Shown here: in pieces, positions 6,701 to 61,056 of the stretch | Numbering within the stretch: position 1 is the first letter of the stretch | How the letters are laid out: each line of letters begins with the position of its first letter | Source of the DNA: Tubulanus polymorphus | Lineage: Eukaryota > Animalia > Nemertea | Assembly (NCBI RefSeq): GCF_964204645.1 | Contig: NC_134029.1 | Location: 7,962,850 to 8,026,849 of the forward strand | Direction: 5' to 3' | Length of the DNA stretch: 64,000 nucleotides | Position numbers and translations under genes: made by a program | The notes under the pieces: generated by a model | Seen by the model: the letters and a program-made list of their open reading frames with translations, nothing else | Databases searched by the model: none | Told to the model about the DNA's origin: nothing

Positions 6701-7001
6701 GCATCAGCCCGGTGATAATCGAAACTTCTGACGCCGAAAGCCCGATTGAACGGAAAAATACGGACAGATATGGAAGTAAAACGGCAACACCTGAAAATGA
6801 AGACAAAAACTAGAGATAGACACTACTAGTACTACTACACAACTACAGAAATTGTGAAGAAAATGTATTAAATGTTGAGAATTTTTTAGTGCGCTGTGGG
6901 ACTTAAATACCAGCAAAAAATACGAAGTACCAGACTTTCACTGGTAATAAATGCCTATCGACAGTCATCCTGCGACGTAATTCTTCCCATCTCTGAGCCA
7001 T
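3739..7001 (-). CDS. MFSD6: MFSD6-like major facilitator superfamily transporter (~659 aa)
   Basis: Exons 7001-6911, 6790-5228, 4426-4244 and 3881-3739 are in frame (1980 nt). Motifs LLPVKVWYFVFFAG, RPLFGMLADK, WGNQRLWGTIGFG, PVELLHGLTFGL and GTLQGLVSGTHFGFGLGIG, plus a large Cys-rich loop after TM3. Confidence 0.88.
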
Positions 7002-7324: not shown

Positions 7325-12313
<4,989 letters not shown>

Positions 12314-37397: not shown

Positions 37398-39949
37398 TCC
37401 TTGAAGATTTTCTATCGAGAGTAAACGATTTTTTTCGTGAGTTTTATTCTTCTTATGACATCTTGTACCGAACTGCATGCGCACATGTCATACAAATATA
37501 TTGTCATAATTCACCAGCCTATGGTGGTATGAATGTTTAACTTTTTAACAGCTTCAATTGCTCGTTCAGTTTACAGAAACGCCTTGTTTGAGATATCTGG
37601 TTTTTGTATTTGTCACTGATAATAATATCATCCTATTCAATTCTTTAGCGTGATCTTTTTGTCGGTATCTTCCTCCACTTCATTCATATCCAAGAAGACT
37701 CCTGTACATGTGTGGCCTCGGCGGCTATCATTAGACGAATGCGGTGAAGTGTCGAATGTCCTTTCGCTCCTCGAAACAAAAAAGTCGATATTTTTTCCAT
37801 TAAGAATCAGTTATGATTTTATTTCCGCTTTTCAAGTCTGTGTCGACCAAAAAGCACAATAGAGGTTTGTAGTACACCATTGTTTTTAGGCTTGCAGAGA
37901 CCAAATACATTGCAGGATATACAATATTAATTTCAAAGGGCAAGAGAGCTAGATAGGGAGGCGTTCCGCGGAAGAATTGTCACACAACTGGCATTGAAAT
38001 TTAAGTACGGCACTGAAGAGAGGTTCGTGGGTAATGCCTCTGCAAGAAAACGATGTCTTATCTTTTCCTATCGACGACAAAATATCAGAGCGCCCGCCAA
38101 ATAACTCCCTTGTTCTTTATCTATATATGCGTAATAAAACTAGTCGCTTTGTAGAAGACTCCGTTCGTTATTCGACGATAATCCATACAGACAGAGAATA
38201 TTAATAATCATTACATGTTTACTTTATACAGTATTTTAATATTCATATTATATTGGCATTTTGTATTTGTTTTTTTTTTAAATCGTTAAATTCAAGAGTT
38301 CAATGTATCAAAGTAATCGTTATATAATCACAATCAACGTATCAAAAAGAAATAAACTTTCATAGATTTATCGTGATATATATAATCAAAACTTAAAACT
38401 ATAAAGCTACCCTACGGGAAAGCGAGAGAAATATAAATGACTAATTAATGCGAGCTTTTAGTAGTAACTGCGGTTTAACAGCGTGTAACAAAAAAGAAAT
38501 ATCATGATCATCATCATCATCATCGATTTTGTGTTGTCAATGGTCGTCGAGTAAAAAAAAAGACAAACGAATATACGCGGGTTTTCAGATAATTCAGGAT
38601 AACAGAATAATAATTACGCGCAGTAACCAAGGCCGACTCTGCCTTCGATCGATAATATGCTATATACCATAGTATACTTAATCGATATATGTAAATTGCC
38701 CGGATATAAAATGGATTGTGAATAAATATTGCATAACTAATTTTTATATTTAACTTTAAATAATTTCGCACCAAGTCCAGGGCAGCGGTATGACAATTTA
38801 GAAATCATAATCTATGATACAGTTTTGCAATTTAATTGTATTATAGTGTTGCATAATAAATCGAAAAGAACGTGTCTGCGCTAAACAACGTACACCGAAT
38901 TCGTTTTGGCATTTCGCGTGGACAGCCGACTAAGAAGCGTCAAGAAGAATATACATTCAACATTATACCCGATTACCACCACATCTTTAATAACCACTAA
39001 TTATTACGTTTAATTCGACCAACTCGTCGTCGTCCGATGACGGAAAATCCATTCGAACGCATCGAAACTAGCGAGACGCCGTCAGGTCGATACGGCGTTC
39101 AAATGTCGGCCATTATTTTTCGGTCGCCGGACGACGACGAGCCGGTCTGTGTCGACAAGCGTGGAAGGATCCGTTCAACAAGCTCCCTACTATACGTAAA
39201 CAAAGAAACGACCAAAATTACGGATACGCTTTCAAGAACTAAGATCATTATTAGCAGTCGAGAAAGATTATCAATATAATCATCTCAATATTATCATTAT
39301 CATATACATTTCGATATAAAGACACGAGTTTTACATGCCAGAAAAGACTCCGAATAGATTACTATAATAATTTTCACAATCGCATTTTAGGGATAAATAA
39401 AAAATAAAACTATCAATTTTTTTTCATATCTACAATTCGATTCGGAACTAAAGCTGTTGACATTGTGTTCGCGACTTCTCGTGTTCCGGCAATGGACAGC
39501 AGTTTACCACAAAAGATCGGTAAAAAAAAATTTATTTATCTGTATAAATATGTTTGAATTTTCGATGAACTATATCCGGCCGCCACGCCCGATTACGAGA
39601 TGTTGCCGCGCTGCTGCTAGCGAGATGTTCATCATTGCCGTTAGATGGCGCCACCACACAGTGCCAGAGCTTTAGACATTCCGAAGATGAAGCACACATA
39701 TTTCCAGGCAATCGAAGATTTATTTTCTCTTTTTTGATGAATAAATATTATACTTGTTGTAGTAGTAATAATAATAATAATAATAATAATCATAACATGC
39801 CCGCCCAGTTCAAAATTGTCGAATTAATTACGCTGATGACTAACATGTTATATCGTAATGACGTTTTGTACAAAAAGTGTTCTTTTTCGCGTTTGATGTT
39901 GTGTCGAGTATAAAAAGAACTACGAAACTTGTGTTGAAACGGGCAAAAT

Positions 39950-42900
39950 TTAATAACCGGCCAACTCGGCGAAAGTGACGTCCAATTCGTCGCTGATGGC
40001 CTTGTACTTGAGTTTCTCCGCCAGAAGTTCGTCTGCAATTGAAAAATAGGCGTTCGTTTTAGATAGAAGACAGCACGTCGCCTCAAACTAGTTTTAGACA
40101 TTGTAGAATCAAAGATCTTAAGGACATTAGTCTGTTTTATCGCATTTCATTTAGAAGTACGTGTAGCACAACGTTATTTCAATAAATTGGAATTGGCACG
40201 TATACTTTATAATACAGGGCTCGTCACGTTACAAACATATTAGTCGAAGTAGAAACCAAAATCAAATCCATTTTCATCGCATGTCCTTCGACAATGCATT
40301 TGATTTGTTTCATCACCCCGACTAACCTACATTTACTATCAGCGTAACAAGTTTCGTTTTTATGAAAGTCGTTTAAGAATTGACCGCCAAAAACTAAATA
40401 TATAATACAAATTCATGCTAGAATCAAATAAATTAAGTCCTGAAATGTTCGAAATTGTTTCGAAGTTTCAGAATGATCTTTTTTGGAATCTCTATATCAA
40501 TATCGTCATTAATCGATAAAATCATGAAAAAGCAGTCACATTGATAACAGAAAAAAGGCAGGCGTATTCTTACCCAACCCACCCGATCTCCCGAGTACGG
40601 ACGTGACAACATCAACCATAATATCAACATCGATTTCACACAAATTATCTCCAAAAACATTCATGCATTTTCCATCTTTTCCCACCCTCGTTATCGATGC
40701 CATTAACTGGCACGTAAACGCATCGAACTTTCAATCAACGGGTTGGTCGGAATGTAAGTAATGAACCGAAAAAATATTTCACAAAAAAAAATTCAAAAAT
40801 ATTTTCCAAATAGCCGAGTTCGAGCGACAAAAGAAGATTCCGTGATCATCAAGTTTGAAAGAACAACAAAGTGCGATACATTCAATAATTTGCCTCTCTC
40901 TATCACCAGATAGAGCGTCGTCGTACATCGGACAAACTGAATGAAAATTTCACCGAGACACACAGAATAAGACTCCATTTAGCGAGAACAAGAAGGAAAC
41001 ATTTTGTCGTATTGTTAGCCTCGCTTGGCATATTTCGACTCAAGAGAAATCAAAGATATAGAAATCAAAAATCCATTTTTCATATAAGTATATATATCAT
41101 GATAAGTCGAACATTTTCGTGTGGTTATCATAAACACATTCTGAAGACAAGTCACAAACAATGCAAAGCTACAGTACGTAAACTTGTATCTTAATGTACT
41201 GTAGTTTTGCAACATTTTTGTGACTTGTCTTAATAAGGGGTATATGTTAACTTGAAAACGTTCGACCTTTTTGATTTCAACATTATAAAAAACATTTCGT
41301 TCTTCTATGGATTTTTAATCATTTGAACTCTCTACCAAGGAGAAATCTATCAAAGAGTAAGAATAAGAAGTCGAGGCTATACATTGGTATACCAGATGAC
41401 TTCCTTTTTCTCGATTTCGTAATTCAAATCGTGACGAAACGTAACGTTCTCGTTCGTTATTGAAATGATACAATGAAAACTGGTCAATGGAAACCCGGTT
41501 CAGATACCACCTGCCTTTTAGTATATCATTGACTGAAATTGCGCGATACGCTCCTTCCAAGCGACGACCAAACCTGCGGTTTTTAGAAGTGACAAAACAA
41601 AGACACAAAATGGTGAGAAATTTCATCGAGGCGCGGGGAGTGCCATCATCGGCCTCACGAGAGGCTATCCGTAGTGGAACAAAATTCCAGTGGATAGATT
41701 ATAGGTCCGTTAACCGATGAGTCCGGACCAGTTGATTTGAATTCAATCCAAACTGAGCCATGTATGGAATTCTCTCATACGAGCATTTGGTCAGCAAAAT
41801 ATTTTTTCGATTCGAATAGAAGTGAAATTTACACTGGAATTTTGCGCAACTTCATCCGAACACAAGCTGTTAGTGGCATTGAACTTGTGCAGGTTCCGTC
41901 GTTTAGGGGGGGGGAGGGCGCAGGAGGGTGTCAAAAGGGGCCCCTCGTACTATGGAGAGCCATGGCTCCGCGTCCATTATGTACTTACTTACTTACTTGT
42001 TACACAAATCAGTCGCCGTTAATGTATTTATAGGTCGCTTAGATCATTCAGAGTAGATTGGAACTCATGTTGCAGTTGTTGGTAATTAGTTTGGGTATTA
42101 TGAAGATCATCTGTTCAAACAACATGCAAAAACAATGCGGATTAGTTCACATGAAAACTGGGGACATCGTTGCTGAATAGTTGGTGGTACCCGCTCCTGA
42201 GAGCTCTCTGTCGGCTCACAAGGCACGATCATTCGTCGAAATTAAACAACATAGGTAATCAATCCGATAAGAGTTGCCAACACAAGAATTTCTATAAATC
42301 CAAAAATCTATTTTACCAGTTTCTAATTGTCACCATAAATGATAGCACTGGCGTATATAGCTATTACTAAATACCAGAAATCTGATATGGTTGGAAATTT
42401 CTTTTTCAGATACATACTGGTAATGTATAAGGAGAATGGTATACATGGAATTTCGATCAAAATTTTTGTTTCAAATGAAATGTTCATCATCATGAACTAC
42501 GCAATGTAAATAGATGTTTTGCAGGAACTAGGAATTTGAATGGTTGGCAATTCCGATCAGAACATGCTACAGCGTGAAATCAAATAGTTGTGATGAGAAT
42601 GAAATCAATTAACTTAAAAGTTTTCCATCATGAAAACTATTTGATTTCACAAAATGAAACAAAACAAGACATGAAAAATTTCAATTGAAGTAATTCTAAT
42701 CTTAATTTCTTTTTCAAAGCAGTGTTTGTTAATGGGCAATAATAATACATGCATTATACTTCATCTGATTCCCTCACTGGGTCTTTGAAGTCAAGTTTTT
42801 CTCTCAAAATTTGTAAAATAAATTAAAATCCTTTTTCTCGAAGATAACTTTTTTCAATTCATAGATTTACTAGTTAGTAGTTTCTTTGACAACGCTCTTA

Positions 42901-45900
42901 AAGCCTATGAATCATTTTCATGCTTTTCGCGTTCAAATATTGAACTTTTTTTCTAACTACGGTAGTTCTACTTTGAAAACTTTTCTGCATGCTCTTTTCA
43001 GTCTGGAGACATTAAATCCCTACAACGTGCACTTCGAATCATAGCTTCATAACTAAACTGAACGTAATGGGGTTGTGAAAAAACAAATCTTCATGAGAAT
43101 TCCTTTAGGACAAAGAAATCTCCCATTTATTAGAATCAACGGTTCATGTAAGGCGTCCACTGTACCTTCAAGTCTGTCAACTTCCTTCTGTAATTTGGAC
43201 ACAGTTCTCTCAGCCTCTGTTGCCCTATGTTCAGCCTGAAAAACATTGCAGAAGTTTCGATCAAAATCAAAAACCAGACGAAAAATTAATCTACCATATT
43301 CTAACCGCATCAAGAAGATTCACAACGAAAACACAAGAACTTGATGATTAGATTTCTTTTTCAAATTTTTTCATTTATTCACACGACGAGGCTTACGGTA
43401 GGCTAAGCCAGCAAGTGCCTGTCATAGATTTTGTCACATCGAAAGAGGTTCGACAAAGTCTGCCTGCGTAAAAGAATCATAATCAGAACTCATAAATCCA
43501 AAATTCTTACCTCCTTCAACCTCTGCGTAAGATCACGGATAGTTTCTTCATACGTGTCTTCTCGGGCGGATGCCTGTAAGAAGATTTAAGACAATATATG
43601 AATAGCTGTGGCCAAATAGGGTAATACATTTTACAAACAGTATAACTACCATGAATATATTTACATTATCTCTTTATTTCAATGGCAAATCCTTTATGGT
43701 TTATGAACATTCAACACAGTAACCTTGCAATTCATCGAGCACCCTACCTACCATATTTCGGACTTCAGAGTGGGTGCTGAAGATTTGAAATCAATAAATT
43801 GCAATTTTCAAGAACTTTCTTAGATACATATTGTATCACTCTCTAGACAAAGTACTGCCTGCATATCCATCTATGGAATACATCTTCCATAGTAAACTGT
43901 ATTTCTAATGCTATGCCATGCTTTCCAAGTTTTTCAGAGCTTATAACCTTAGTATTGTTAGTAAGTTCAGTTGACAAGTTTAAATCAATTGCTTTGTCAT
44001 TGTTGTCCGATTCCCAAACACTGGATGGAATGATTAATAGTTAGTAGTTACATTAGTGTCAAAATCAGGGTCCCTACAGATCAGTCATCCTGGATATAAG
44101 GAGTTAATCTGGATATAATGAGTTTTCAAGGAGTTTTAAAAGGAAAAAATTTCAAATTTGGTTTCAAAAGAAGTGTTCGCATCTTTTTCATATCCAAATT
44201 ATTATAGACTCCTGCTAAATCGGTACCATCCATCTGAGTAAAACGTTAATTTGGTGGTTTTGTAAGCAAATTTTCTCAAGTAGCAAGTTTTAATCAATAA
44301 CTGCCTAATTTGGCAAAAGAAAAACCTGTTCCCAACAGTACCCATTTTACCTAGGCGTAGTATGCTGTACAACTACAAACTAACTAGACAAAAATTTCTA
44401 ATTGCCTATTTCTCAAAATTGAAGGCGCTTTTACGCGCGTTTTTAAGGAATCAAGGAGTTGTAACGACCCTGAATATACAAACCACGATCTATTCAACAA
44501 CAAGATAAGTAATATTCATCAATGAAATATTCAAGGAAGTACAGTAGACTCCATACACTTTGGCATATCAAAAACATTTGTAACCGATATTGGAAAGACC
44601 GACTTAGCTCCCAAATACTCATCGTAACATGCCTCTAAAAATATGGCCGAAATAAATGATATTTCGCTATGTTTCAAACATTTGCATCTAATTCGAAAAT
44701 CCCTAAAACATTAGAAAATAAATCTCTGCGTGCAGGTCATCGACCCAACTATGAGATGGCTGCTATTGTTAAGTCCCCTAGAACATCATCAATTACCGTA
44801 GTGACTTGTATTGATATTACCTTTGCATTCTGAGATTAAAGTGGTAATGAATTAAATCTTTTGGATGTATCAATTGTATCCAACTATGAGACAGCCATTG
44901 CGCAATATGCACAGGCTAAATCGACGAAGAACCGGGTTATTAATTTGTTTTGAAAATAATCTTTATCTCTCCCCGCAAATACGCTATATGAATTCAGGTA
45001 TTTCTCTCCCACCAGAAATATCCAAAATATACGATCGTCTAAAAAGTTGTTTGAAACAATAGCAAAACATTGAACGGACGGGCTGGACAACATGCCGAGT
45101 AACGTAACTGTCACGCCATGCACGCGGTCGGTCGATCGTTACCTCAGCTTCATTAATTTCAAGAGATTTCAAGTTGTTGCCAACAACTCTCAGTTCCTCC
45201 TCTAAATCGGTGATTTTGCTGAAAATTTAAGAACACCGCCGATATTTTAGACGATTGAAAAACACGATAAGGGGAGGGGATTGGGGAAGCAGTCGATCCA
45301 AGACACGTCCAACGTCGTCGAAATAGTGGGCTGGAAAAAAAATGATACTGAAGATTAAGATGAAATGATAAATGAGACAGAGCTTTATCAACCGTGGCTA
45401 ATGAACTGGTATTGCAAAGTAGCAATAGCAGAGAATTAAATGAAGTTCAATAATCATTATTACTACAAAAATATGTAGTAACAAAACCAAAAGTTTATAT
45501 TCTAACACACAGGGGCTGCAGTTGCATATCTGGGGCCAGTCGTTGCTCAACAGTTGGGGTTAAAGATAACTTGTGGATAAAAACCATAGTAACAATGAAC
45601 TTTCAATTGTGACTATGCCGACAATCAAACTGGTTAACTCTAACCAACCTTTGAGCAACTGGCCCCTGCCGGTTATCTTAAACCCACTTTTGAGCAACTG
45701 CCCCCGCCGGATAATATTTCTATGCAAGAAAAAAGTTATACACATTCAGGGCACGAGAAAACTCTGTCACAGATGATTAAGAAGCCAAGTGGAACATTAT
45801 TATAAATGTTCCATTTGCCCTCAAGGTGATGACGATGATAATGCGGATGGACAGATGTTAGTTTCGGATGCGGTTAATTTTACCTTATCTTCCAATTGTT

Positions 45901-48047
45901 GTAGATGTTTCAAATCGTTAGTAACCGTTTCCAATTGTCCTTCATAACTTCGGGCTTTTCTACAAGCAATCATAAAAGACAAACGTCATGCAACGGACAA
46001 CCGTAAATAAAGGTCAATCTTCGAGAAACTGGTCGAACATCGAGCAATTTAGTATTTTCATTCCGTAGACGATAACCTGTTAGTTAGTTAGCTTCGAGAT
46101 TTTTTTTTGAGAAACCACGGATTACTTTAACCAATGAATGCTACCCTTTTCATTGTAAATGACATCAAAACGAGGACTTATATTAGTATTCGGATTTCGG
46201 TAGAAAGTATCAAAGAAATTACAAAGGATATATATAATCAGCCAATTCATATTCATATTTGCATAATCAACGCAAATATAGATACAATCGGGTCTTTAAT
46301 TTACATTATTTATATCAATATTTTGATTGTACTGCTGCACAAACAATAGCCACAAATGCAAATCCAACAACAGCCATATTGTCCGAATGTTTTACACCTT
46401 TTGCTGGCGGAAAGCAAGATAGTTCTAAGAGAGCCAATTTTGAAGTATATTCTATGATGTATATACTATACAATGCATTTTCTAAATGGGCCAGTTCCCG
46501 AATGTATTCATACGAATTTATGCTGAATATTTGAAGTTTCATATCGTTATTTAGGAATCGCTCGATAATTATATTGTTAGGAAATAGGCTGGAATTTTGA
46601 AAACTGAAGAATGAAGTCACACATTTGAAAAAAGTAAAACCAAGACATTATCATTCAAGAAAATAATCACCAATGCAAGACAATTCAGATGCTGAACTTA
46701 TGCAAGGAGGCCATGCTGAAGAGCCTGTATTCGGAATACCACATCACATTGCCTAATGGTAGTACATACGGCGATGAAACCGGATATTTTCGAAATGATA
46801 ATGTTCTCGTTTGACTCCGAAAAAAATAAAATTTCATCCAAGCATTCTTTGAGACAAGAATCAGAAACTGTGACCATTTGCAAGTTGTAGTAGATTACGT
46901 ATATAAAATCGTTTCCATACGAACATAGCCAACAGAAAGTAGACTAAGTGCACGTATGATGAATTATATACCATAATCGCTATTCATATACAGGTAATCA
47001 GAGCGCAATTACGCCTAAAATCACAATATAGCGTTAAAATGAATGTGATCTCATTTCGTAATATCTGTATATTCATCGTCATTTAGTTCATGGTTCCCAT
47101 CTACGGCATAGCCAAAGCCAGCGTACCTTCATTGGCAGATTGATTTTGGTAGAAATATTTTCATCATTATTTTAATCATTCCAAAATATTGATCATGACA
47201 GTTATGTATTTCACGAAGATACACAGACTTCGTCGAGATGAAAACAAAACCCAACACCAAGCAGTAGTGTCTCGCGAAAAAGTTAGAAACGTCAAAATTC
47301 GAAGAAAATTAAGTTACGTTATCTTTTTCGCGAGACGCGAAAAATTCACACGATTCCTTCAAAAGGCTCAGGTCAAAACTAGCAACTAGTTTAAACATTC
47401 AATAAATGTAAATGTAAGAACTAATAGTACAGCACAGTATGCCAAGTCAGATCTACAAGAGTCAGTCCAACTCGTACCGAAAATATTCCGCAAGAACTTC
47501 AACAAGGCCCAGTGATGCAGTCTTTATTTCTTAAAGTGTTTTTAAATCTTAAGAATCATTCTCAAGTCGTTATATTGCCAGAAAAGCATTGACCAAGGCG
47601 AACAATTGGCCCCTAGGCATTTATCCTCTAAACCTGACTTGGACAGACCTGACATACTTTCACTACTAGTATTAAGGTTAAATCAGGGTGGCCACTTTCC
47701 TCCCATTTACTAAGACCCCAGTTTTCCCTGAGTTTCCAAGTTTAAAATATTGCTATTCATTCATTTTTCATTGAATCACGTACTGATAAGCACGCAGTCA
47801 ATGGGATTATCCGAATTCCCTGAGATTTCTAGGCTTTTGGTAAAATTTGTTGAGTTTTCCCTGATTTTACGATTCCCTGAGTATTCCAGGTCAGTGGCCA
47901 CCTTGTTACTCAATATCGCAAAGAGTTAAATATCAAATCGAACCCACAACACGTGAAGAAACAATGCTACGATGAGGATTAATAAGAGAGATAAGAAGTG
48001 ATATATAAACGAGATGAAATGAGGTGATGATGATAAAATATGACAGC

Positions 48048-48079
<32 letters not shown>

Positions 48080-51000
48080 GAACGTTGTAGTACTTGTTTA
48101 ATTCTATCGATCGCGTCTCGGTCGTATTTAGTTCACTCTCGAGCATTACGGATTTTCGGTTCATCTGAAACGAGAAAAATGTCGCGGACGCATGCAAAAT
48201 ATGTCAAAGATACATTTTTGGGGGGAGGGGATTGGGGTACCACGTGTCACTGGACGCGATAAAACAGCAGAATATTGGATGATGGCTATTAGTTTATAGC
48301 CGTAACGTTGCTCAAAATAATATAGGTACCGGTATACTCATTTACTCAAGAACTTTCCATCTTTTGCTGAAATTATCATGCGATTTCTTACGTATAATAA
48401 GAAGGAATTTCATTCTCCAAAGCACTTGAAGTAAATGGCATTTCACGAGTACGCTAGTAAATTTGGTCATTCACACCTGAAGATGCAACATTACATTAAT
48501 AATTTGAGTATTTCCTATGAATCGATAATCAAAAACTTGCTTATCGTATATGCTTAATTAAACGGCTGTTTTACCAACTAGATAAAATTCTGACCTGTCT
48601 CGTACATTTTCAAGTCAGAATTACGAGGTGTTGTTACGAAGTATGCCTTTCGTAGTCAGTCAATCGCGGAGAGTAGTACGATGGACGCCGAATCCAAAAT
48701 TTCAAACTTCGCAAAAGTAGAGATTTCGAACGGCACACTTCGCCAAGTCGTACGGGGCATCATGCGCAAATTCAAAGTACAGTTCGATACATACCCCTCA
48801 GCAGATTCCAACCTGGCTTCTGCACGCTCAAGATCAACCTCAGTAATAGCGAGCTTTCTTGCAGCCTGACAAACAATCGAGATCAATTTTCATATTAGTA
48901 CAAAATACGTATCACAGAAAAAAAATTATACGAGATATAGGTTTTAACGAGCGAGACAATTCGCAGCTCTAGTCGCCCTCCATTTTTGGAAAAGCGTTCG
49001 ACAAAAAAGCCATTAATTATACAAAATGAATAAGAGATTGCAAGATGGGTTTTTATGTCGATCAACATCCCAAATTTAGGGAAGTTGAAGGGTAATTTTG
49101 ATTGGAAACTATTTTACAAATCGAATAACATCATTAGTTTGTACGGAACACGTCCAATGCATCGAACTCTCTTCTATAATATAATTTCTCACTATCATCG
49201 GATTATAATAATATGCAAATCAATTAATCAATACATCTCCGAATAATCAATCAAAGTAAAATGGTCTGACAAGCAGACTGATAAGGTAAGCTTTCTCTGT
49301 ATTGCAGCACAAAATACAAAATGTCAATACGACATTTCTCCTGGTTAGTAAAGATACTACTCGACATTCTTAAATAATAATAACTGTTAGAAACTATCAG
49401 GCCTTTTAATCTTATATGTGTACATACAAGGTGCTACAAAGTGGATGGCTATACTGGCACCATTTTTTTCCGAGCCCTATGCAATGGCTCAATGGGACAA
49501 TACCAAAAAGGATCACAAAGGGGACTAGCTGTTATTTGAGGCCATATACTTCAAAACTAAACTGATCGTTAATTTCTCGTGCGATAACTATTTGGTTCAC
49601 CTGAAAAAAATAGCAATTCTTTTCCATGCAATGAGTTAATAACAATAACGATAAACCACGCACTTCTAATCGTCACGCTTCATTAATGGACACGCCGAAA
49701 GAAAACAAGAAATCATCCGAGGAACATTTGAAAAGATGAACACAAATGAAACATCGTATTTCAGTCGGAGAAAAGTCAACAACGAAATATGGGAACGGAA
49801 AATCGAAAAGAACGAAAAATACAATAATCGCGTTCGAATATCGTGTCAGGGGGAATGAATCAAGAAGAAAGAAGAAGATGAACTGATTCTAATCAATCAT
49901 AATCAAAAACGAACGGGGAGATGGTGACTGGCAGTCCCTGGCACTAGGACGGTCATGCTGTATTTTCACCTCGTCGTATTTGCGATCGCCGTCCTCTGCG
50001 ATATTTTTGGCCTCTTTTAATTGTTCCTCGAGGAAGTCAATGCGTTCATCGTCGCCCATGCTGCGTTTTTCGAGCACTTTGCGCATTCTGCATTGTAAAA
50101 CAAGCTACCGGTAACTAAAATCTATTGTTATTTTTTTAAAGCATCGCGAAGAAAGGACTTATATTGGATCATATTCCGCATCTGACCACATTTTCGCCCC
50201 CAAATTTTTTGGGTACAATTTCACAAAAAAAAATATCAAATGCGAAAAGAGTATCTATCTTCTTGTGAAACTCGAAATTGGAAATGTTTTCAAAAAACAC
50301 CGATTCAAAGCTGATAATTGAAACTTAAGTTGTGCTGAAATTGAAGACTCCAGGCTTTATACCATTCTGGAAAATTAGGACAAAAGGAATAAGATTATAT
50401 CCCCTCTAACAAATGAGGATGAGAAAAGTAATAAGTCACAATCGCTGTAAAAATTTTCATCGCAAGACTGAATATCTTTTTTTTTACCGACTTTCTATCA
50501 TAGGAAAGTTTGTGAAAGAATAATGTTACAACCAGTCACTTAAGAAAAATCGGATTCATATTTGTCAGATTTATATTTGTTCGGCTATAATTGACCCAGT
50601 TAATTCATACGAATACCACACAGTAAGCCAAGCTTACCAAACACTGAAACAATAGCGTCAAAACCGTATATCTATAGGCCAGCTATTCATTATTTCAAAT
50701 ATGCTGTCGGAAAATGTGTGTGGTGTGTGTGTGACTAGCAATACTAACAATCCCGATTATTCGAGGAATGCTTCTAGAAGGTCACCTAACGAAAGCCGAG
50801 GACTGGCTGGACAGTATAATACCGAAAGTATGCAGTTCGCATGCAGTACTTCATTTAGAACTAGCAGTACAGCTCGACGCGTTCATATACGGTACTTCGA
50901 AGGTATAAACCTAATTCTGCCGCGAAATACATAATCGACCTAGTATTCATCGAGATATTAAATACATAATTTATACGCTCTCAAGTTGATGGCCTTATAA

Positions 51001-54000
51001 TTAAACAACAGCGCTCTATACACAACTATGTAGTGTCACACAGATAGCGCGGATAATTTTCGGCCCGACTACAATTAACTCTCGCGGTGGCGAGAACGCG
51101 CATTATATAGGCCTAACAGCGCTATGGAAAAAACAATTGCGCCGAAAAATCTTATCAATCAAATATAAATCACAGTCTTGCGGCAAATTTATACAGCGGT
51201 GAACAATTTCCCAAGATTTTTTTCCATCAACAACAAAAATAGACCTCCCAAATTTCTTTAGTAGTAGTAGTAGTAGTACTAGACCGCTGCAAGAGATTTT
51301 CATGGTTAGATCGAGACGAGAAATATGCAAATACGTGAACAAATATAACAATTAGCATACGGTGAATACGATCTATAGATATATATATATATATACTGTA
51401 TATTACAACAACACATACGAAGCCATACATTTTGATCAGCGCCACTAATAACATGCATCGCGTCGGTCCAGTGTCCGAAAAGGTCTATATCAACGAACTA
51501 GTCGCTAAATATTCGCATTTTCGACGGGAATTTCGTTTCGAAAGTATTGTTGATATAGACCTCGACGATGGATTTTTCGCTTTTTTTTCTCGTTTGTTCG
51601 AACAGGCGTTGATTCACCTCGTCGTATTTGCGGTCGGCGTCTTCTGCAATGTATTTGGCTTCTTTAAGTTGACTCTCCAATGTGTCGATTCGCTCGTCGT
51701 CGGCCATACTGCGGCTTTCTAATACTTTTCGTACTCTGTCGGTTTACAGGAAAAAAAAAACGAGTCATGAAATGGACGAGTCAACGAACTAGAATATCCC
51801 GACACCACGCCAAACACCGGGTCGGAATGTTCATCTAACAAACACGTCCGAACAACCGTGCCGAATCGGCAGGCCTCTCTGAAACAAATTCTGCGACCTC
51901 ATTCGCGACAACCTGCCTTATAAGGGCGTAGACGATGACATGACGATACGCGGTGATTTCCAGTAATAACAGTTCGCCATCATTATCGCGTTAATTGGCA
52001 CCGTTTTCATAACTAAAGAATGAATGTCAATGAATGAATGAATCAATTAAGAGAAATATATACATCATTGAGTTACGCTTTGTAATGCATAAAACTCGTG
52101 TCAAATCGTATCTCCTGACTTTATATGGAATATACACGTCGAGTGGTAAACGCGTGTGACGTCTATCGAACGGCTCTTAGCTTAGTTCGCTTCGAGAGAT
52201 AACCGAGCATCTGTCCATGTATTACTAGTCTGCATCGTGAGGCCGATGACATATTGCAAATACCCCGTGAGTCATCATACACCTGACATTTGTTGTTGAG
52301 AAAACAAGGACGTTTCGCAAATTGCATACAGTACGACCCATTCACAAAATTCGACACTTCGCGAATAGTAGAGATCAGGTTCGCACACAATTGAATTAAG
52401 GCTACAATTTTATGTACTACCGGAGCCAATCGTTTGGTATTGAATGCGCAATGCAACACTAGTCACAACACTAGTCACGACTAAACGATTGACTACCTGC
52501 AGTCAAGCCTTAAGTTTTAAAAACGACTAGAGTTGTGCCAGATACTTGAACTCTTGCTCATTCATCGTACAGATGGCGGTGCAAAAATATTCCGATAAAA
52601 GGCAGCTGTTATTACTGGTGTAACCGTATTCGAACCATCGGTAAAAATATAATAATCAAGACACGTCCTGCAACACGATGAAGAAACACGACGATTAAAA
52701 AACGCCTGAAAATAACATTTTCAAAACAGCCGAACTACACGTCTTACGCTTACCCAGCCTCTGTCGGCAAAGCGCCCCCATTTCGGTGGACCATCGAACT
52801 TTCGATACATACCTCTTCGTACTTGTACTCCCATTCTAATGACTCTTGGTGGTACATTTTAACGGTGCGTTCTAGTTCTTCGACTCGTTCGTCGTCCATC
52901 GCGCTTTTCACTTCTAGAACTTTCCTCTGTCTACAAATGGTTAAAAAAACACAAACGCATGCGTGTTAATAGGGCGTATAGCATGTCTTCTGCTAAGGGG
53001 GCAATGCGTGGACAAAATCCACGGTTGAGACTTTAAAGTTACATAGATAATCTATCACCAACTTTATCAAGGATGTCCTTTAAATATATTAAATCGAGTC
53101 GATTTTTACCGGTCTTTGCCAAAATCGATGTTCCAATTTTAGATTTTGAGCATTTAGATGGACATTGGCTTTCGGGCAAGCCCAATTTTTGCGTTTGAAC
53201 ACCATGAAGATTTTAAGCTCATTTGTGGACAAAAGTCTCAACTGTGGAGGGATGGGTGGTGGATGTTAGTGAATTAATCAACAAGGCCACAGACTTAATC
53301 CAAACCTTTCTATCTTAAACATGAACTCACAATATGTTCTGAGAGCAGATATAAACAATACATTTCGCCGAATTTGAATCTCATGCTAAGGATTATTGCG
53401 AGCTATGGTAATATTATTCGCAATGTCCCAATAACTAGGTTGAACATTGAATTGAATTAACAACAATCAAATAGGCCCCATGATAAAATCGATAGTCAAC
53501 AGGTGGGTTTAAATCCACACAACTCTCACTAGATATTTCTATAAACAACCCGAGCCTAGATTTTGAAATAGTTTTATTTTGGTCCCTCTGTCTCAGGCAG
53601 ACAATGGAATACTTAAAATAAAAACATTGATAGCCCACCTGAAAACTCTAATATCTCGGTGTTATGTTGAAATCATTAAATTCTGATTTCTTGAGTCTGA
53701 AATTCATTATTTAAGGGCTAGTACTGCTCGGGTATTGGTGTCATACATGCTGTTATGTTTACCGGTCTAATGTCTAAAACCTAATACGTGTTAATGACAT
53801 GCAGAGCCTTGTGCATGCTGTATGCTGTACGCACCTACCAGAAATGATGAAAATACATAGGCCTACATGTTGCAACGCCATCATTCTTCGAGAAGGGGCT
53901 AAAATCGCTTACACACTAACCTTACTTACGAAATCGATTTTCTCACGAGAAAAATTCATTAACATCAATTTCCACTATAATCATTACACACACATGCAGT

Positions 54001-57000
54001 AGATTTTCATTAGGCCCATAGTTTAAGCCCACTTTTAAACAGACCAAAGCATTTAACTAAAACCAGTTCAGATGAAAGTATTTGATCGAAGAGGCCAATG
54101 TATGAAAATCAAAGCTGAAGCAACAACTTAAATCAACACTTTCATTTATACACAAACTTTCAATAACTGGCTGCCTGGTTTATGGAACAGCGGTGCAAGG
54201 CATTTGTCCGAATTATCCAAAAACGTGGATTGAAAAGGTAAGATTGACCATATTCTATTTTCTATAAATACAAAATGGCGTAGTTTTCCTAATTGACTTA
54301 ATTATTACTGCAGATTTGACAAACCTACCGTTCGCTCTCATCTGCAGCCTTGGATGCCTCCTCCAACATCGTTGTGGCCGTTTCAAGTCTGGAATTGGTG
54401 CTCTCGATATCATCTTCAAGAAGTTGTATCCTCCTGTTCAGGGCGGCTACTTCTGCTTCAGCCTGAAATTCAAACGCGAGAGAAAAGCTTACTCGCCGCA
54501 TCGCGAGGGAACAGTCGAAATTTACTGCAGGGAAGATTCCGTTTTTTTTTTAAATTCTATTGATATACGAAATAGTTCATTTTCAAAATCCAAGGAAAGG
54601 AAAATGCTATGATGAAAACGTCAATTACTATCAATTCAAATTCATTTCCACCAAAGTCGGGCCTATAAAATTTTAATTAATTTCAATTTTTCTACATTTC
54701 TTAACAGGGTAGGTTTGCCAAATCAAAAAATATATTCTCATAAAACATCAACAAAAAGAAGACAGAAAGCATAGAGGTATGTTACTGATATAGCCTAGTT
54801 TTTTAACACTAAACAACATTCTCATTCTCGAATTAGGCTAATTGAAAATGAGATTAAATCCCTTACAATCTTTGAGAAACTGAACGCGGTTGATGGAAGT
54901 GGCTTGTGACAGCAATGGCGTGAAATGGGATCACCTTCATTTCACAGTTTTGAACATGTTTTCGTATGCTAGCGTAAGAGTGTGTAGAAATATAGTAGGC
55001 CAGGCCTATTCAGGTTTGCAGACGTGCCGTATTTTCTATGAACCAAACCGACGCAACCATTGTACTAGACCATTACTAAATTGACTAACCAATGAAAGAC
55101 GCATTAATTATCCAAGGTCGTAGGTGTCTTGGAACGCATTACTTCGCAGCTACACCTCGTTTTAAAGGAAATATCACATTCCAAGATTCAATATTTTTCT
55201 TAACCCAGTATAGGTCTAACGAAAGATAAATCAATCGATATCAACATGACGAGAAACCTAATCCTAATAAAGATATTCCAACTAGCCTATTTTTCTTATA
55301 GAAGACCTAGTTCTTATCATTTATGGAGAAGAAATGCATAAGATATAAGATATGCAATTGAATAGACTAGCCTACCTATGCTTTTGAGCTTGCCTCTAAA
55401 CCCTTTGACAGTCACGTCATGTGCCTTAAGTGTAGCCTAACTCAAATATTCCCATTCTTAATTAGTAAACACAGTGAAAATTTGATCCTACCCATTTTAT
55501 CAGTATTGTCAGATATGTTTCATAAGCATACAGAATCCATATTCTCATGTTTTGCTCTTGTAGTTTCCTCTAGGAGGCTTTGATATGTTAGACTATATCT
55601 ATATAGCCTAGTAGGCCTACTTTATCAATAGGCCTGCCTGCACCCAGTCCGGGAGTCCCATGGCCACGAAGAACTATAGCCCTATGACAGTCAACTGGCC
55701 CATGCCCAGCATACAGCTGCTGCAAATTACAATTTTCTTATGATGCTATCAATATCATATTTAGTTTAAAATCTATCCTAAGAATTACTGCCCAAAATAC
55801 AACTAAATTCCAAGCAAATAATTGAGACCCAGATACGTATATGACTGACGGCCATTTTGATAACCGGCCTCAACTAAAAACGCCTGTTACGTTAGTATAT
55901 TACTGATCTACCGAGACATTCGAAAACTCCTGAAATATCTTTGGAACCCCGAAATCAGTATCAATATCAACACGTCTTGGAAATGCACCCGCGGGAAGAA
56001 TACGCGAAAAGCGGTGGATAGAAATTTTTTCAATAAATAACGAAAGGGCAACACCTACTGTCGACCGCAATTTCTCCTCTTCTTTTAATCCCCTTTGGAG
56101 CTCTTCGACGTCGTCGCATTTGATTTCTAATTCCTTTCGAATCTCGGCGAATTTAGCCTTTAGTTTATTCATATGTTCCGCTGCCATGATGTTCGCTAAT
56201 TAATTGGTTGGGCGTTAATTTTCCTTACTAAAATTCCTAAAAGAATTTCTGGTAGCTCGCGACCGAACAACACAACGAACTAGCATTCAGTTCAGACGCC
56301 ACCGCCGCCGGTACGTCATCGACAAATAGTGCCGTCATAAATCGTGTCGTTGACAAGTTTTGAGCGAGTGGCATTTATAAAATAATCTAAGAATCCCGTC
56401 GGATACTCGAATAATAGCAGTTGCAGTTTCAAAACAAACGAGATGCTGGTGAAATATCTAGATTTTAATGAAAATAGGTGTATCGTAAGCCACTAATATA
56501 TTGTCAACTACATAATCGATTTTCATATTCAAACGCTACAAGTAGTTCCATACCGTATGTCCCGAAGACTAGGTCAGAGTCCCGTCAAAAAACCTTCGTT
56601 TAATCGCGGTGACCTAATTTTTAGGGTCCTGTTTCAGCTAATCGGGATTGATTTAAATTGCCTATGTCACCAAAATAAGAAGATTGCAATAGCGGGTGCA
56701 CTCCAAAAAGTTCATTTAATGATTATTTTCGTTATGTACACCGTTATACTTTGTCTAATTCTGAGTAGATATGAAACACCCCACGAAACATGATCAAGAC
56801 TTTAATCAAAATATAATTTTATTCATACTAATGCGAAAAAAGTTTGTTAAGTAATTAAACCAATTTTAATTTTTTTCAGTAGCATCAAAATATATAAAGA
56901 TCCTCGAGTCTTTATGTATTTTCGATTTATTGTCAAACCCGATAATTGTTTATTTCTTGACTTGATAAATTCATATATTGATCTCATAGAATATTTTGAC

Positions 57001-60000
57001 GATGATGAATTAAGAAGTACCTTTTTTATTTCCGTACCGTATACATTAAGAAAACTGTCTAAATTATACGTAAAAATTTTGCCTAGATCTAAAATGTCAA
57101 GTATACCATAGATTTAGTTCCAGATATTATTCATAGGGGGCACCACAAGCTACGGTATCAGCGATAGACGCGTAAGTTGGTATGTTCTAATTTAATATAA
57201 TTGGGTCGTGATTATTAACATATTCAATTAGCAAACTATAAAAAGGTATCGTTGCCATTTTCAACAAGGTCTATACTTTTGTATACTAACATAAATCCGT
57301 ACATATTTCCTGTTCTTATAAACAAAACAAAATACCCTAATCCACACAGATATAAATCCGTCCGAAAATAAAGAGGAAAGGCTCAAATGAAACTCACGCA
57401 CACCAGAAAAAGCAGAAAAAATAAACAAAGCAATGAAATTCACTAGTATATATGCATATTTTACCCTTTTCATGGAAACATTTATTATATTGGAAAGTTC
57501 GGACGAAATTATGGCAAATCTAAGCCCCACCGGGGACGTTAGCGCTACCGGTAAAGTAGCGGGGAAAAGTCCATAGCTAGTAGTCCTTCGGATTGGTCGC
57601 GACGGTACAACGCGATTGGTGCTGTCGTCGGCATCGCTATCTGATCCGAGATCGGAAAATAATGGTTTATTGTTATAGATAATGTAATCGTAGTCGTCGT
57701 CTGGAATAAACGTGGCCCCTTCCGGTTCCGGTCGATTTGAAGTCGATGAAGTCAACGACTTCCTACTGCTGGAAGTTTTAGCTTCCGCAGATTTGGTTTT
57801 CTTTGTTTTCTTTTCTTTTTTCTCTTTCTTTTCTTCTTTAATTGACCCATCATCGGGATCCTTTTTCTTTTTCTTTTTTCTACGTTTCGTAGTTCCTGAA
57901 CATTCACTCCCAGTGTCCTCCTCCCCTCCGGGATTTTCCGAGTCTTTGTCTTTCTTTTTAACTTTCTTTTTCTTTTTCTTACCGGATTCGAGTTGAAGCT
58001 TTCGTTCTAGTAAAAGTGACGTCACACTGCAGTCACATTGCGTTTCCGGTAATGCCGAATCGCCGTCATTAGCGACGGAATGTCGTTTGAACTGATGTTG
58101 ACAACCGCATTTTAATCCATGAACGACACTAGTCCTATCACTGGGCAATATATCAGATTTAGAACTTTTAAAATCCGAATCGATGTCATTATCAACGGTA
58201 AGGATATCTGCCGCCATCTTGTTTCAGAATCTCAGTACTGTAATCCAGGTAGATCGTAGTGCGCAAAAAGTTTTCTGAAACTTGGCATTGCCGCGTGATA
58301 AATTCATCGATTAATCCGATTTATCATTACGTATTTTTCCAAGGTCGCATCAGATAAACATCAACAAAAGTTTCGTATCGGTGATTGCTATTATTCTGTT
58401 ACACAATAACGCTTATGATATCTATAAATATTCCGGAGGGGTGGAGCCCACTAACCAGCACCGGAGATACGCCGTCTCGCTTCCTTGCTTCTATACCGTA
58501 GCATTCCGAGCTAGCTGTATTTCCAAATTAGGGTTATGACGTCACCAGCTGCTAAAAATACGTCCACCACTCAGTACTCGGCTTACTGCAGTGAGCTAGG
58601 TTGGCGAACATTCCTCGTTCAGATGTATGATGCTAATTTTACACCCCTTCCCCGTACAGCTGCATATACGCGAAGTTTAAGTGAATGAAATGTAAAAATC
58701 CAGATATACGTATCTTCTCGACTGTACACGCCTTTGCCGTCTAGCCGGTAAAACCTTTTATTTTATGATGTTTTTATTCACTTTTAAGTGCGCTTTCCCG
58801 TGTTATTTTACTGGATATGTTTGAAATTTTACGTTTCTACACATCGAGATTTAAGTAGACCCATCCATGTATTTTTGAATTTTCTATACTTATTGGAATG
58901 AAGATAGATGAAAAGTGTATTTAATAACTTTTGCTTGCAACAGTGATGAAAATGATTGAGTATGATTATAGGCGTAATTTATACTAGATGGCGCATAGAG
59001 CGACCACGAAGTATTCTTACGGTATGTCAAAAAGCGTTCTACCAGTTCTTGATTTTGGTTTTAACCTATTAAATTGATTTGAATATTGGTTACTTAATTC
59101 ATTTGACATACGATTTTATGTTTCAAAATTGATTTTACAACTAAAATGACTTTGTGAACTATTTCATATATACTCAATATATCTATATATGGGGGACGTG
59201 GTTATGAATATAAATCTTACATCAGCCTGTGATTTCTCCGCAGCTTCCAATTTACCATTGGCATCTGAAAGTTGCTCTTGAGCTAAATCTAAATCACCTT
59301 CCAACTGCGAGACCTTCTTCTGGAGGTTGGTAAGGTCTTCTTCTGCCTGAAAAATACAAGGAAATACATGTTGGTAAATGTGTGGCTTTCTTTTGGATAG
59401 AAAACTTAGTTTAACTAAGTACCCAAACAGCCTGAATAACAAGTCGTCTCGAATATGCATTTCGGACATATTTGGCTAATTCATTCTCTCGATTGATGTG
59501 ATTTTTTGAATAACCAAGGTTCACCGCTGAATGCAATTTAGAATTTACTATACTCTTGGATTCAAATTCGATGTAATAAGGTAACATCATAAGGTATTCG
59601 GGTCTAATGTAAACCGATGATCTATGAATAATCTGTTCGGGGATTGAGTGGAAGAAGCTGAAAAATTGTCTATTCGTAGACCATCGGTATCTAAGTAAGT
59701 GCAAGGGAGCTAAATTTACCGCAACAGACTCAGGGAACGGTCGGTAGAGAGGGGTGTAGCATATGTTACAGCTAATGCAAGTAGCATCGACATATCTTAC
59801 TAAGAATAGCTCGATATATATGTATGAGCAACAGGTGTACTATATCCTATGTCAGAAGACGACCAGGTAATACTAACCCTCTTCTTATATATATATTTGA
59901 GACACATTGAAAAGGTGTAACGGAAATGGATTGAATTCTTCTGCTTTTGTGAAGGTCAAATTCGTACATAGTTTATGTGAAGATCATCCCTAATGTATAT

Positions 60001-61056
60001 ATAGGATTTATGGCGGATAGCGAAGATGGGATCCTATTTTGTATGGTGGATTTTTCCTTACATCTGCAATCTATTTTTATAGAAATGAAACATGACCAAC
60101 GTATTTCTTTGAACGTTAAGATTTATTCTAACGAGGTTTTAGCCTCATGTAGAAGATACGCGTATTTCCTTTTCTTTAGTGATGTTTGAATAATAATGCG
60201 GCATCTACATCGACGCTGAGACGTCAGTAGACGATGTACGTCAGTATAGACGATGTTTTTATGTTTTGCTCATATTCAACAGTAAGAACACAGTTCACGG
60301 GGAAATGATTTTTCAAAATATTTACATCAATTTCTAACGAGGTCGTCTACGCTTTAGTTAACGGATGTAAACGCTCAAAATAACCAGGCTTGTGGGTCAT
60401 AAGACAGTGGTGCCTTCATTCATGAATTCCTATGAAGCGACGCAATATGAATGTAATACTGGTAGTCATACAGCCGTTTTAATTTTGGACAAAACAAAAA
60501 TCTGAACTAATTGAACTATCTGGGGCCAGTTGCTCAAAAGTTGGTTAAAGATAACCGGCCGTTAAATACCATAGTAACAATGAAATTTCAATTGTCACCA
60601 TATCAACTATCTACTGGTTAACTCTAACCAACTTTTGAGCAACCGGCCCCTGAACATTTGAAGGAGTTATTCAGTATTAGGTATCATAAGTTATTGCTTT
60701 TGTTCGGTCTTTTAGTTACTAAGGAAACATTTCCGATTGTTATTTGTAACAACGATTTGACGGAAAAGTCCGTTATTAATTCATCGAATACTCGATTATT
60801 TTCGTTTTGACTCGCTTATCTGTCATTGAAACTTTGCAGATCGAATAGATATTAGTCATTATAGCTACTGTTGGTAACTGTTGATTACAGAATCCAAGAT
60901 GGTGGATCGTGTCGAGTTACTGAATGAGAAGCAAAATTTTACCTTGGCCGTTTTGTCTTGCTCTTCCTTGAATTTCTGCTCAATTTGATCGGCGTTATCC
61001 ACTGCAGCTTCTTTCTCCAGCTTCATAGCCAACATCTTTTTCTTGATGGCGTCCAT
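39950..61056 (-). CDS. Tpm: Tropomyosin, canonical 284-aa isoform
   Basis: Exons 61056-60943, 59346-59221, 54462-54329, 51735-51618 (or 50087-49970), 48865-48795, 45218-45143, 43573-43511, 43235-43166 and 40032-39950. Sizes 114/126/134/118/71/76/63/70/83 sum to 855 nt. MDAIKKKM...[11 protein letters not shown]. Confidence 0.97.
42028..42110 (-). CDS. Tpm: Tropomyosin alternative terminal exon (divergent)
   Basis: 83 nt, same phase as the canonical terminal exon; [27 protein letters not shown]; acceptor gtttgaacag. Confidence 0.85.
45533..45665. mobile_element. Harbinger-type MITE (CTG TSD)
   Basis: ctg|gggccagt...gagcaactggccc|ctg; same family as 60523-60649. Confidence 0.75.
45884..45959 (-). 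CDS. Tpm: Tropomyosin alternative exon 6 (divergent)
   Basis: 76 nt, phase 2/0, ag...gtaaaa; [25 protein letters not shown]. Confidence 0.85.
47684..47905. mobile_element. hAT-like MITE
   Basis: cagggtggccact...agtggccaccttg with internal ttccctga repeats. Confidence 0.6.
48048..48079. repeat. (ATG)n microsatellite beside the divergent exon 5 donor
   Basis: About ten gat units. Confidence 0.9.
48094..48164 (-). CDS. Tpm: Tropomyosin alternative exon 5 (divergent)
   Basis: 71 nt, phase 0/2, tttcag...gtac; [23 protein letters not shown]. Confidence 0.82.
49970..50087 (-). CDS. Tpm: Tropomyosin exon 4 variant (canonical-like duplicate)
   Basis: 118 nt; [39 protein letters not shown]. Confidence 0.93.
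52813..52930 (-). CDS. Tpm: Tropomyosin exon 4 variant (divergent)
   Basis: 118 nt, ag...gtatgt; [39 protein letters not shown]. Confidence 0.9.
56059..56187 (-). CDS. Tpm: Tropomyosin internal first exon (1b-type), giving a ~247-aa low-MW isoform
   Basis: 43 codons [43 protein letters not shown], then a phase-0 gtaggt donor; heptad pattern. Confidence 0.88.
57465..58217 (-). CDS. Tpm: Tropomyosin long internal first exon (low-complexity, Lys-rich), giving a ~455-aa atypical isoform
   Basis: 251 codons from an ATG in aagATGGCGG context to ...[21 protein letters not shown], then a phase-0 gtaaaa donor compatible with exon 3 ([11 protein letters not shown]). Confidence 0.8.
60523..60649. mobile_element. 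Harbinger-type MITE (CTG TSD)
   Basis: ctg|gggccagttgctcaaaagttggtta...taaccaacttttgagcaaccggccc|ctg. Confidence 0.85.

Follow-up and report, generated by a model that had tools for sequence, protein, structure and literature searches.

Proteins of the RBFOX/Fox-1 family bind (U)GCAUG in RNA, repressing exons from upstream sites and activating them from downstream sites (PMC2018636, PMC5840707). Exons on this map include human F1-gamma exon 9, calcitonin/CGRP exon 4, Mef2D alpha2 and alpha-actinin SM/NM. Tropomyosin genes are among the targets. In rat Tpm1, a gene with linked choices, RBFOX2 represses the non-muscle exon 6a of the pair 6a/6b, acting opposite to PTBP1, and long reads reveal linked exons (PMC8419188). 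In Drosophila Tm1 the choice of C-terminal exon shifts on knockdown of Rbfox1, which reads the same motif, in work on Rbfox1 and Bruno1 that compares muscle fibre types (PMC8742874). An invertebrate mutually exclusive pair outside this family, exons 7a/7b of neuronal unc-32 in C. elegans, is governed by the RBFOX proteins ASD-1/FOX-1, which select exon 7a together with UNC-75 and act on one of two clusters through one intronic UGCAUG (PMC3585155). Bilaterian tropomyosin genes have two promoters, and each of their duplicated exons is assigned to one or other of two isoforms, the duplications being independent in most bilaterian lineages; the review section that describes this names no cis-element or factor for the assignment (PMC3342872). 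Here we describe a complete tropomyosin gene on the minus strand (61056..39950) of a 64,000-nucleotide stretch of contig NC_134029.1 of the nemertean Tubulanus polymorphus, hereafter the window, which offers a candidate: the GCATG element is placed by exon set at four choices, and we think it probable that an RBFOX-family protein is the main switch between the sets.

An earlier note, made from the letters of the window alone, had proposed such a code, starting from repression by RBFOX proteins from upstream and activation from downstream, and the layout found here does match the published map (PMC2018636, PMC5840707), the motif lying upstream where repression is predicted and downstream where activation is predicted. 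The locus differs from that map in presenting four separate choices in one pre-mRNA, and in that no upstream site lies outside the stretch from the predicted branch point to the AG. On F1-gamma, Fox-1 blocks the downstream intron, and the step blocked in the present gene may differ. In the present gene the motif accompanies three internal clusters and a stop-codon cassette; in rat Tpm1 one internal pair has been shown. No published report of a GCAUG code in a spiralian tropomyosin gene was found in a literature coverage that was incomplete, most subscription journals lying outside it. The principle of RBFOX control of tropomyosin is thus known from rat and fly; what appears to be new is the layout in this lineage, with four choices, sites that overlap the splice signals, and RNA support.

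The exons, whose names were coined in this analysis, follow the order 1a, 2, L, 1b, 3, 4A, 4B, 4C, 5A, 5B, 6A, 6B, 7, 8, 9A, 9B, all on the minus strand. We refer to 4A, 5B, 6A and 9A as the divergent set and to 4B, 5A, 6B and 9B as the canonical set. Every divergent exon has GCATG just upstream of its acceptor, as the earlier note had stated. Exon 4A (52813..52930) has it at 52958..52962 (-32 to -28), 4 nt past a predicted branch A at -36; exon 5B (48094..48164) has TGCATG at 48191..48196, with GCATG from -31, 9 nt past a predicted branch A at -40. Before exon 6A (45884..45959), TGCATG at 45987..45992 (GCATG from -32) overlaps a branch candidate, GCATGAC, whose A is at -27, another candidate lying at -55. 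Before exon 9A (41989..42110), TGCATG at 42123..42128 (GCATG from -17) falls within the pyrimidine tract, after the branch candidate AACTAAT (A at -32). The last base of the motif is at -28, -27, -28 and -13, respectively, and the hexamer is CGCATG at 4A and TGCATG at the other three. Branch candidates were picked with a simple TRAY consensus pattern. The earlier note had placed three of these sites at branch-point distance; all four fall at a candidate branch point or in the stretch from there to the AG. All nine motif positions that it gave read GCATG or TGCATG on the minus strand.

None of the nine other acceptors (exons 2, 3, 4B, 4C, 5A, 6B, 7, 8 and 9B) has GCATG within 200 nt upstream, which agrees with the absence already noted before the canonical exons. 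Presence within 40 nt in 4/4 divergent exons against 0/9 others within 200 nt gives a Fisher p=0.0014, and a per-window chance of 0.046 (40 nt, background of this gene) gives 4.6e-6 for four of four. GCATG is the sole 5-mer of 1024 common to the four windows at 40, 50 and 100 nt, and pseudo-acceptors carry the motif in 9 of 262 cases. As a look-elsewhere measure, 5 of 715 four-exon subsets have an exclusive common 5-mer, as do 0.44% of 20000 draws of random intron windows. Chance is put at no more than about 0.4-0.7% after look-elsewhere, and the positional pattern far exceeds chance.

The motif also has a marked strand bias, with 28 sense and 7 antisense copies in the gene and 26 and 24 outside it. 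The bias is limited to the alternative region: introns 3-9B hold 26 sense and 7 antisense copies (expected 8.6, p=1.4e-6), 17 sense copies remaining when the nine named sites are removed (p=0.0075), and introns 1a-3 hold a single GCATG. The further sites cluster upstream of divergent exons, with 5 in intron 3-4A and 4 in intron 8-9A. Among sense-biased 5-mers GCATG ranks tenth, mostly behind U/G-rich words. Such a strand bias is the behaviour expected of an RNA element. The four divergent exons are not mutual paralogues, so the shared motif did not come from one duplication, and its position inside the 3' splice signals of all four makes it hard to view as secondary.

Downstream of donors the arrangement is reversed. 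Exon 4B (51618..51735) is followed by TGCATG at 51452..51457 (GCATG at +162), exon 5A (48795..48865) by GCATG at 48761..48765 (+30), and exon 6B (45143..45218) by TGCATG at 45117..45122 (GCATG at +22) and GCATG at 45091..45095 (+48), as the earlier note had held. A fifth site that it had assigned to a canonical partner, GCATG at 49954..49958, belongs instead to exon 4C (49970..50087), a third copy of exon 4, at +12 of its donor. No GCATG occurs within 300 nt downstream of the donors of 4A, 5B and 6A. Within 200 nt downstream, the motif is found after 4/4 canonical exons and 1/10 others (Fisher p=0.005); counting 4C among the others changes this to 3/3 and 2/11 (p=0.027). The code is real on the downstream side too, but weaker there than upstream.

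RNA contigs indicate that the two sets of exons are spliced as sets. Five public sequencing runs were matched, none of them registered as RNA, and one of these, X2, from the study of the window's probable source, was judged to be RNA because its joints are GT-AG and its depth peaks at exons; X3 and X4, from the same sample, have none of these joints and look like DNA. X5, from another study, is 85-90% alike. X2 was compared over 39800-59500, with depths from 15 of 80 joints, each depth being a single value for its contig that reflects expression poorly. The GT-AG joints coincide with the predicted exon ends. Depths are 4096 for 2>3 and 2301 for 1b>3; 5000 for 3>4B and 2097.2 for 3>4A; 5319 for 4B>5A and 2097.2 for 4A>5B; 4869 for 5A>6B, 4974 for 6B>7 and 2287 for 6A>7; 8271 for 7>8; and 5148 for 8>9B, 2076 for 8>9A, and 1296 and 1171 for 9A>9B. 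At 98% likeness over 45100-54500, the five joints listed are all within-set (3-4A-5B; 3-4B, 4B-5A, 5A-6B), with no mixed, tandem or 4C joint among them. Exons 4A, 4B, 5A, 5B, 6A and 6B were each found spliced, and no tandem join is among the joints listed, in contigs that drop rare forms. The divergent share is 0.345 at the first exon (1b) and 0.295, 0.283, 0.315 and 0.287 at the four splice choices.

In X5, one 323-nt contig (depth 784) runs over 4B, 5A and 6B. A second contig of 323 nt (depth 172) opens with 3>4A, and its middle could not be read; the 248 unaligned letters equal 73+71+76+28, that is, the rest of exon 4 followed by 71, 76 and 28, and fall outside both 5A and 6B. Together these contigs suggest that exon 3 is linked to exon 7 by two unbranched paths in a relative. 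In X2 the depth of 6B>7 is almost accounted for by 5A>6B, and no other inflow into 6A is listed, from which, with X5, we infer a join of 5B to 6A. Across exons 4-6, then, transcripts of the gene follow two main paths, 4B-5A-6B and 4A-5B-6A. Both runs give the canonical path the greater depth (about 70% in X2; 784 against 172 in X5; the joint 8>9B has a depth of 806 in X5). Equal lengths of the partner exons keep mixed paths in frame, so that frame surveillance cannot explain the coupling. Control by frame or by nonsense-mediated decay was accordingly rejected as the coupling mechanism, and a trans-acting or promoter-linked signal is needed.

Assignment of the gene to the tropomyosin family (PF00261), of the protostome two-promoter type, is clear from Pfam matches, exon lengths and phases. 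Joined as 1a-2-3-4B-5A-6B-7-8-9B, the exons give an open frame of 284 aa; joined as 1b-3-4A-5B-6A-7-8-9A, they give a predicted isoform of 247 aa, with no internal stop in either. Exon 1a (60943..61056), which carries the ATG, is the first coding exon of the long isoform and is followed by exon 2 (59221..59346); exon 1b (56059..56187) is the first exon of the short isoform. Exons 3 (54329..54462), 7 (43511..43573) and 8 (43166..43235) are constitutive. The coding part of 9B, the canonical last exon, is at 39950..40032 and becomes 3' untranslated region if 9A is included. The tandem copies have equal lengths (118/118/118, 71/71 and 76/76 nt), the same phase and homologous positions, and partner identities in the exon 4, 5 and 6 clusters are 41%, 26% and 36%. 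An internal paralogy of bilaterian tropomyosin genes has reportedly been described by Irimia et al. in 2010. Searched alone, 4B and 4C score above the Pfam tropomyosin cut-off and 4A (E 8.5e-4), 5A, 6B and 9B are weak matches; exons 5B, 6A and 9A searched alone gave no tropomyosin match in Pfam.

The mRNA of a relative (L001; 80% identical in nucleotides and 92% in amino acids) has the exact order 1a-2-3-4B-5A-6B-7-8-9B, and, used as a query, it finds its best matches among annelid, flatworm, nemertean and mollusc tropomyosins. Identity of the canonical exons to the matching segments of mollusc, nemertean and annelid proteins reaches 90% (4B), 96% (5A), 88% (6B) and 92% (9B); for the divergent exons it is no higher than 44% (4A), 35% (5B), 40% (6A) and 31% (9A) among the 44 homologues that were sliced. 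The sole close match to a divergent exon among 141 proteins fetched is an orthologue of 4A (P0025, a single-exon open reading frame, 61%), which was found by a HMMER search; a word search with exon 4A found no protein. Exon 1b is 39-42% identical to 1b-type segments of arthropods and nematodes. Duplicated exons 4, 5 and 6 are also present in Mytilus, Lineus, Octopus and Schistosoma proteins.

Exon 9A, which the earlier note had taken for a terminal exon, proved to be a stop-codon cassette, its stop ending at 42028: it is spliced on to 9B through donors at 41997 and 41989, with a summed depth of 2468 against an inflow of 2076. These donors are tandem GTAAGT sequences 31 and 39 nt after the stop. 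Under the mammalian 50-nt rule for nonsense-mediated decay, whose validity in spiralians is assumed, 9A transcripts would therefore escape decay. The exon is closed by three tandem GTAAGT donors, 4 nt apart (41985-42000), of which two are among the joints listed, at similar depths. Exon 4C is 82% identical to 4B in amino acids, with 14 synonymous and 7 non-synonymous codon differences, and no joint of 4C to exon 3 or exon 5 was found in X2 contigs. It looks intact, has a GCATG within the exon in addition to the one at +12, and may be a rare cell-type variant.

The canonical exons are marked by another motif, GGACGUGU. A longer form, GGACGTGT, occurs at 51842..51849 (-114 of 4B, with a further copy at 52661-52668), at 49148..49155 (-290 of 5A) and at 45303..45310 (-92 of 6B), and GACGTG is found at -47 of 9B; neither occurs within 350 nt upstream of any divergent acceptor. 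GACGTGT is present in the gene 7 times in sense and not at all in antisense. A shared 8-mer with at least 5 G/C, a cut set after the motif had been seen, appeared in 0/5000 and 5/5000 random draws, and any shared 8-mer in 5-7%. Past the donors, TCATCG/YCAY follows 4A, 5B and 6A, and CCCGT follows 4B, 4C, 5A and 6B. Exon 5B has a weak donor (CAA|GTACTA) and then a CAT repeat, with 19 YCAY in 150 nt.

The locus looks, from its sequence, like a set of exons switched by RBFOX. In cells that have it, probably muscle, RBFOX would occupy sites at or closely past the predicted branch points of 4A, 5B, 6A and 9A, or in the pyrimidine tract, and keep these exons from being recognised; it would also promote 5A, 6B and 4B from the downstream sites; with promoter 1a, this would yield the 284-aa isoform. 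Cells free of RBFOX, probably non-muscle and using promoter 1b, would include 4A, 5B, 6A and 9A and make the predicted 247-aa isoform, a second factor, with GGACGUGU as its candidate element, probably holding back the canonical exons. The canonical set is thus the probable muscle program and the divergent set the probable non-muscle program. The linkage of 1b and 9A to the divergent set, the branch points and the second factor are inferred parts of this scheme, as are the tissue assignment and the identity of the factor that reads GCAUG. A bolder form, which we advance only tentatively and hold to be less likely than the simple switch, is a two-factor toggle: RBFOX would shut the four non-muscle exons at their branch-point and pyrimidine-tract signals, a reader of GGACGUGU would shut the muscle exons elsewhere, and each independently duplicated exon would have gained its motif convergently. 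Such convergent gain, if true, would explain how duplicated tropomyosin exons are assigned to one of two isoforms.

Several observations weigh against this scheme or against a switch by RBFOX alone. The earlier note had one factor flipping four choices together; that the exons travel in two sets is borne out by the within-set joints, the two X5 paths and the shares of 0.28-0.32, but a fifth choice is coupled to them, that of the first exon (1b against 1a+2), a promoter choice with no such motif nearby, and GCAUG is not the only set-specific motif, given GGACGUGU before canonical exons and YCAY/TCATCG after divergent ones. RBFOX therefore probably does not act alone. Among the downstream sites, the best placed (+12) belongs to 4C, use of which was not seen in X2; the sole site of the expressed exon 4B is distant (+162), a reach at which 22% of random windows hold the motif; and constitutive exon 8 is also followed by GCATG, at +174 and +243. 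In the RNA data, 5B>6A is absent from the X2 joints listed, one joint having been dropped at the CAT repeat beside the 5B donor; 1b and 9A are tied to the divergent set solely through equal contig-depth shares; and contigs drop rare variants, so that minor mixed isoforms may escape. Finally, in the one arthropod locus with full flanks among those examined (L008), the exon-4 and exon-5 variants come in the same order, and GCATG is found at none of the six alternative exons, within 250 nt upstream or 300 nt downstream; the code is thus not protostome-wide.

The coupling of the first exon leads to the most serious rival, in which the sets are tied together mainly by promoter choice (1a or 1b), or by a non-muscle repressor plus an activator acting via GGACGUGU and YCAY, and GCAUG only sharpens the outcome. 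The first-exon share (0.345) is similar to those of the four splice choices, and the review of bilaterian genes links exon assignment to alternative promoters (PMC3342872). Moreover, the 350 nt before 4B, 5A and 6B contain GGACGTGT and GACGTG stands near 9B, neither precedes divergent exons, a shared GC-rich 8-mer is rare, TCATCG and CCCGT are placed by set, and rat Tpm1 exon 6a requires PTBP1 as well as RBFOX2 (PMC8419188). Nevertheless, the GGACGUGU sites are more distant and scattered (-47 to -290) than GCAUG, whose place inside the 3' splice signals of 4/4 divergent exons is hard to explain as secondary, and a single literature search yielded no splicing factor for GACGUG, only Bicc1, which binds AGACGUGAC in 3' untranslated regions (PMC12439600); we regard this explanation as unlikely. 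Somewhat less likely still is that RBFOX is the switch and the programs differ otherwise, being those of two muscle types, or of neurons and muscle as opposed to other cells. RBFOX proteins are active in neurons and muscle (PMC2018636, PMC3585155), runs X2 and X5 carry no tissue label, and the short C. elegans tropomyosin LEV-11E can be a muscle isoform, functioning in pharyngeal muscle (PMC11702560), so that a short isoform need not be non-muscle, a point that also counts against the assignment of programs preferred here. On the other side, the canonical set matches the conserved long protostome tropomyosin, exon 1b resembles the first exons of short isoforms, and the canonical path is the deeper one in X2 and X5.

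It is very improbable that the motif pattern is chance or a by-product and that RNA base-pairing or steric hindrance sets the choice of exons. Over 14.5 kb, the best duplex partner of exon 4A is the 3' splice region of 4B, and vice versa, with a 19-nt core of -24.5 kcal/mol (z -3.2), but an unrelated pair, 4C and the region upstream of 6A, does better (z -4.0) among 66 pairs, and the pairs 5A/5B, 6A/6B and 9A/9B have no such duplex, so RNA pairing was rejected as a general mechanism; the full duplex scan covered 7 of 22 queries. Steric exclusion of the type seen in alpha-tropomyosin exons 2/3 was rejected likewise, since introns between partners measure 630-1995 nt and AG-exclusion zones are 19-114 nt, leaving no distant branch point near an upstream donor, and the chance of the motif pattern is itself small, as calculated above. 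Pairing of GGACGUGU with the GCAUG regions was also considered and gave no consistent partners (z <= -2.8 in 3/20 pairs, of which only 9B/9A are partners). RBFOX acting through GCAUG at each choice, probably with a second factor, is thus the reading that we prefer.

For comparison with other genomes, 27 of 64 parts of a metagenome collection were scanned, yielding 26 loci, most of them spliced or intronless. In these parts, and in a search for the genomic contig of P0025 (142 stretches matched a pattern, 0 confirmed), no genomic locus of a close relative was found. Loci L015-L020 have a single copy of each exon covered. Duplicated exons were found only in L008 and in L013, both arthropod-like, and L013 has no flank upstream of its first exon. 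Several metagenome contigs (L023:9623-12373 and L024-L026) hold tandem, mostly intronless, divergent tropomyosin genes that are crustacean-like by appearance.

A number of other features of the gene were noted. Exon L (57465..58217) is a third, alternative first exon, encoding an atypical, Lys-rich head of 251 aa; an X2 contig (57464-58408, depth 270) shows it spliced, with 26 further letters past the donor, and it is partly covered in X5. Its core, RPEPEG...PLFSD...FAII.SEL.N...VS.KR, is common to Octopus, Lineus, Ostrea and Mytilus, and its end to tardigrade, Folsomia and Trichinella isoforms. This distribution suggests that the exon occurs throughout the protostomes; it has no match in the PDB and no Pfam family above the cut-off. 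A C-rich repeat of 21 nt, 90% identical in its two copies (45271-45291 and 48222-48242), lies about 60 nt upstream of 6B and 5B; it precedes the second exon of each pair, whatever the set, and a poly(C) or pyrimidine binder may use it to recognise downstream partners. Around GTATGTATCGAA, 15 of 16 nt agree between the donors of 5A and 4A (48783-48798 and 52801-52816), each the first exon of its cluster. The 19-nt complementarity between exon 4A (52870-52888) and the branch region of 4B (51776-51794) could block joining of 4A to 4B. Near several alternative exons are ACTAAY elements (46092-46080, 53270, 45862 and 49139, minus strand), including a tandem pair about 125 nt upstream of 6A, which we take to be of the QKI/HOW or branch-point type; they show no strand bias in the gene (ACTAAC, 11 and 8; ACTAAT, 11 and 5). 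Neighbouring open reading frames, named by eye, are similar to an MFS transporter (5184-6809, minus strand), an EHD/sarcalumenin GTPase (11414-12313, plus), a GPCR (17588-18607, minus) and a Cys-loop chloride channel (23988-25398, plus).

Beyond vertebrates, flies and nematodes, little work has addressed how a single pre-mRNA coordinates several choices that lie far apart. This locus offers a clean and testable answer, in the form of four 5-nt sites placed in the 3' splice signals of four unrelated exons. If the proposed switch is true, it would extend RBFOX control of the contractile apparatus to spiralians, and would provide a compact model of multi-exon coordination, with a candidate for a second element.

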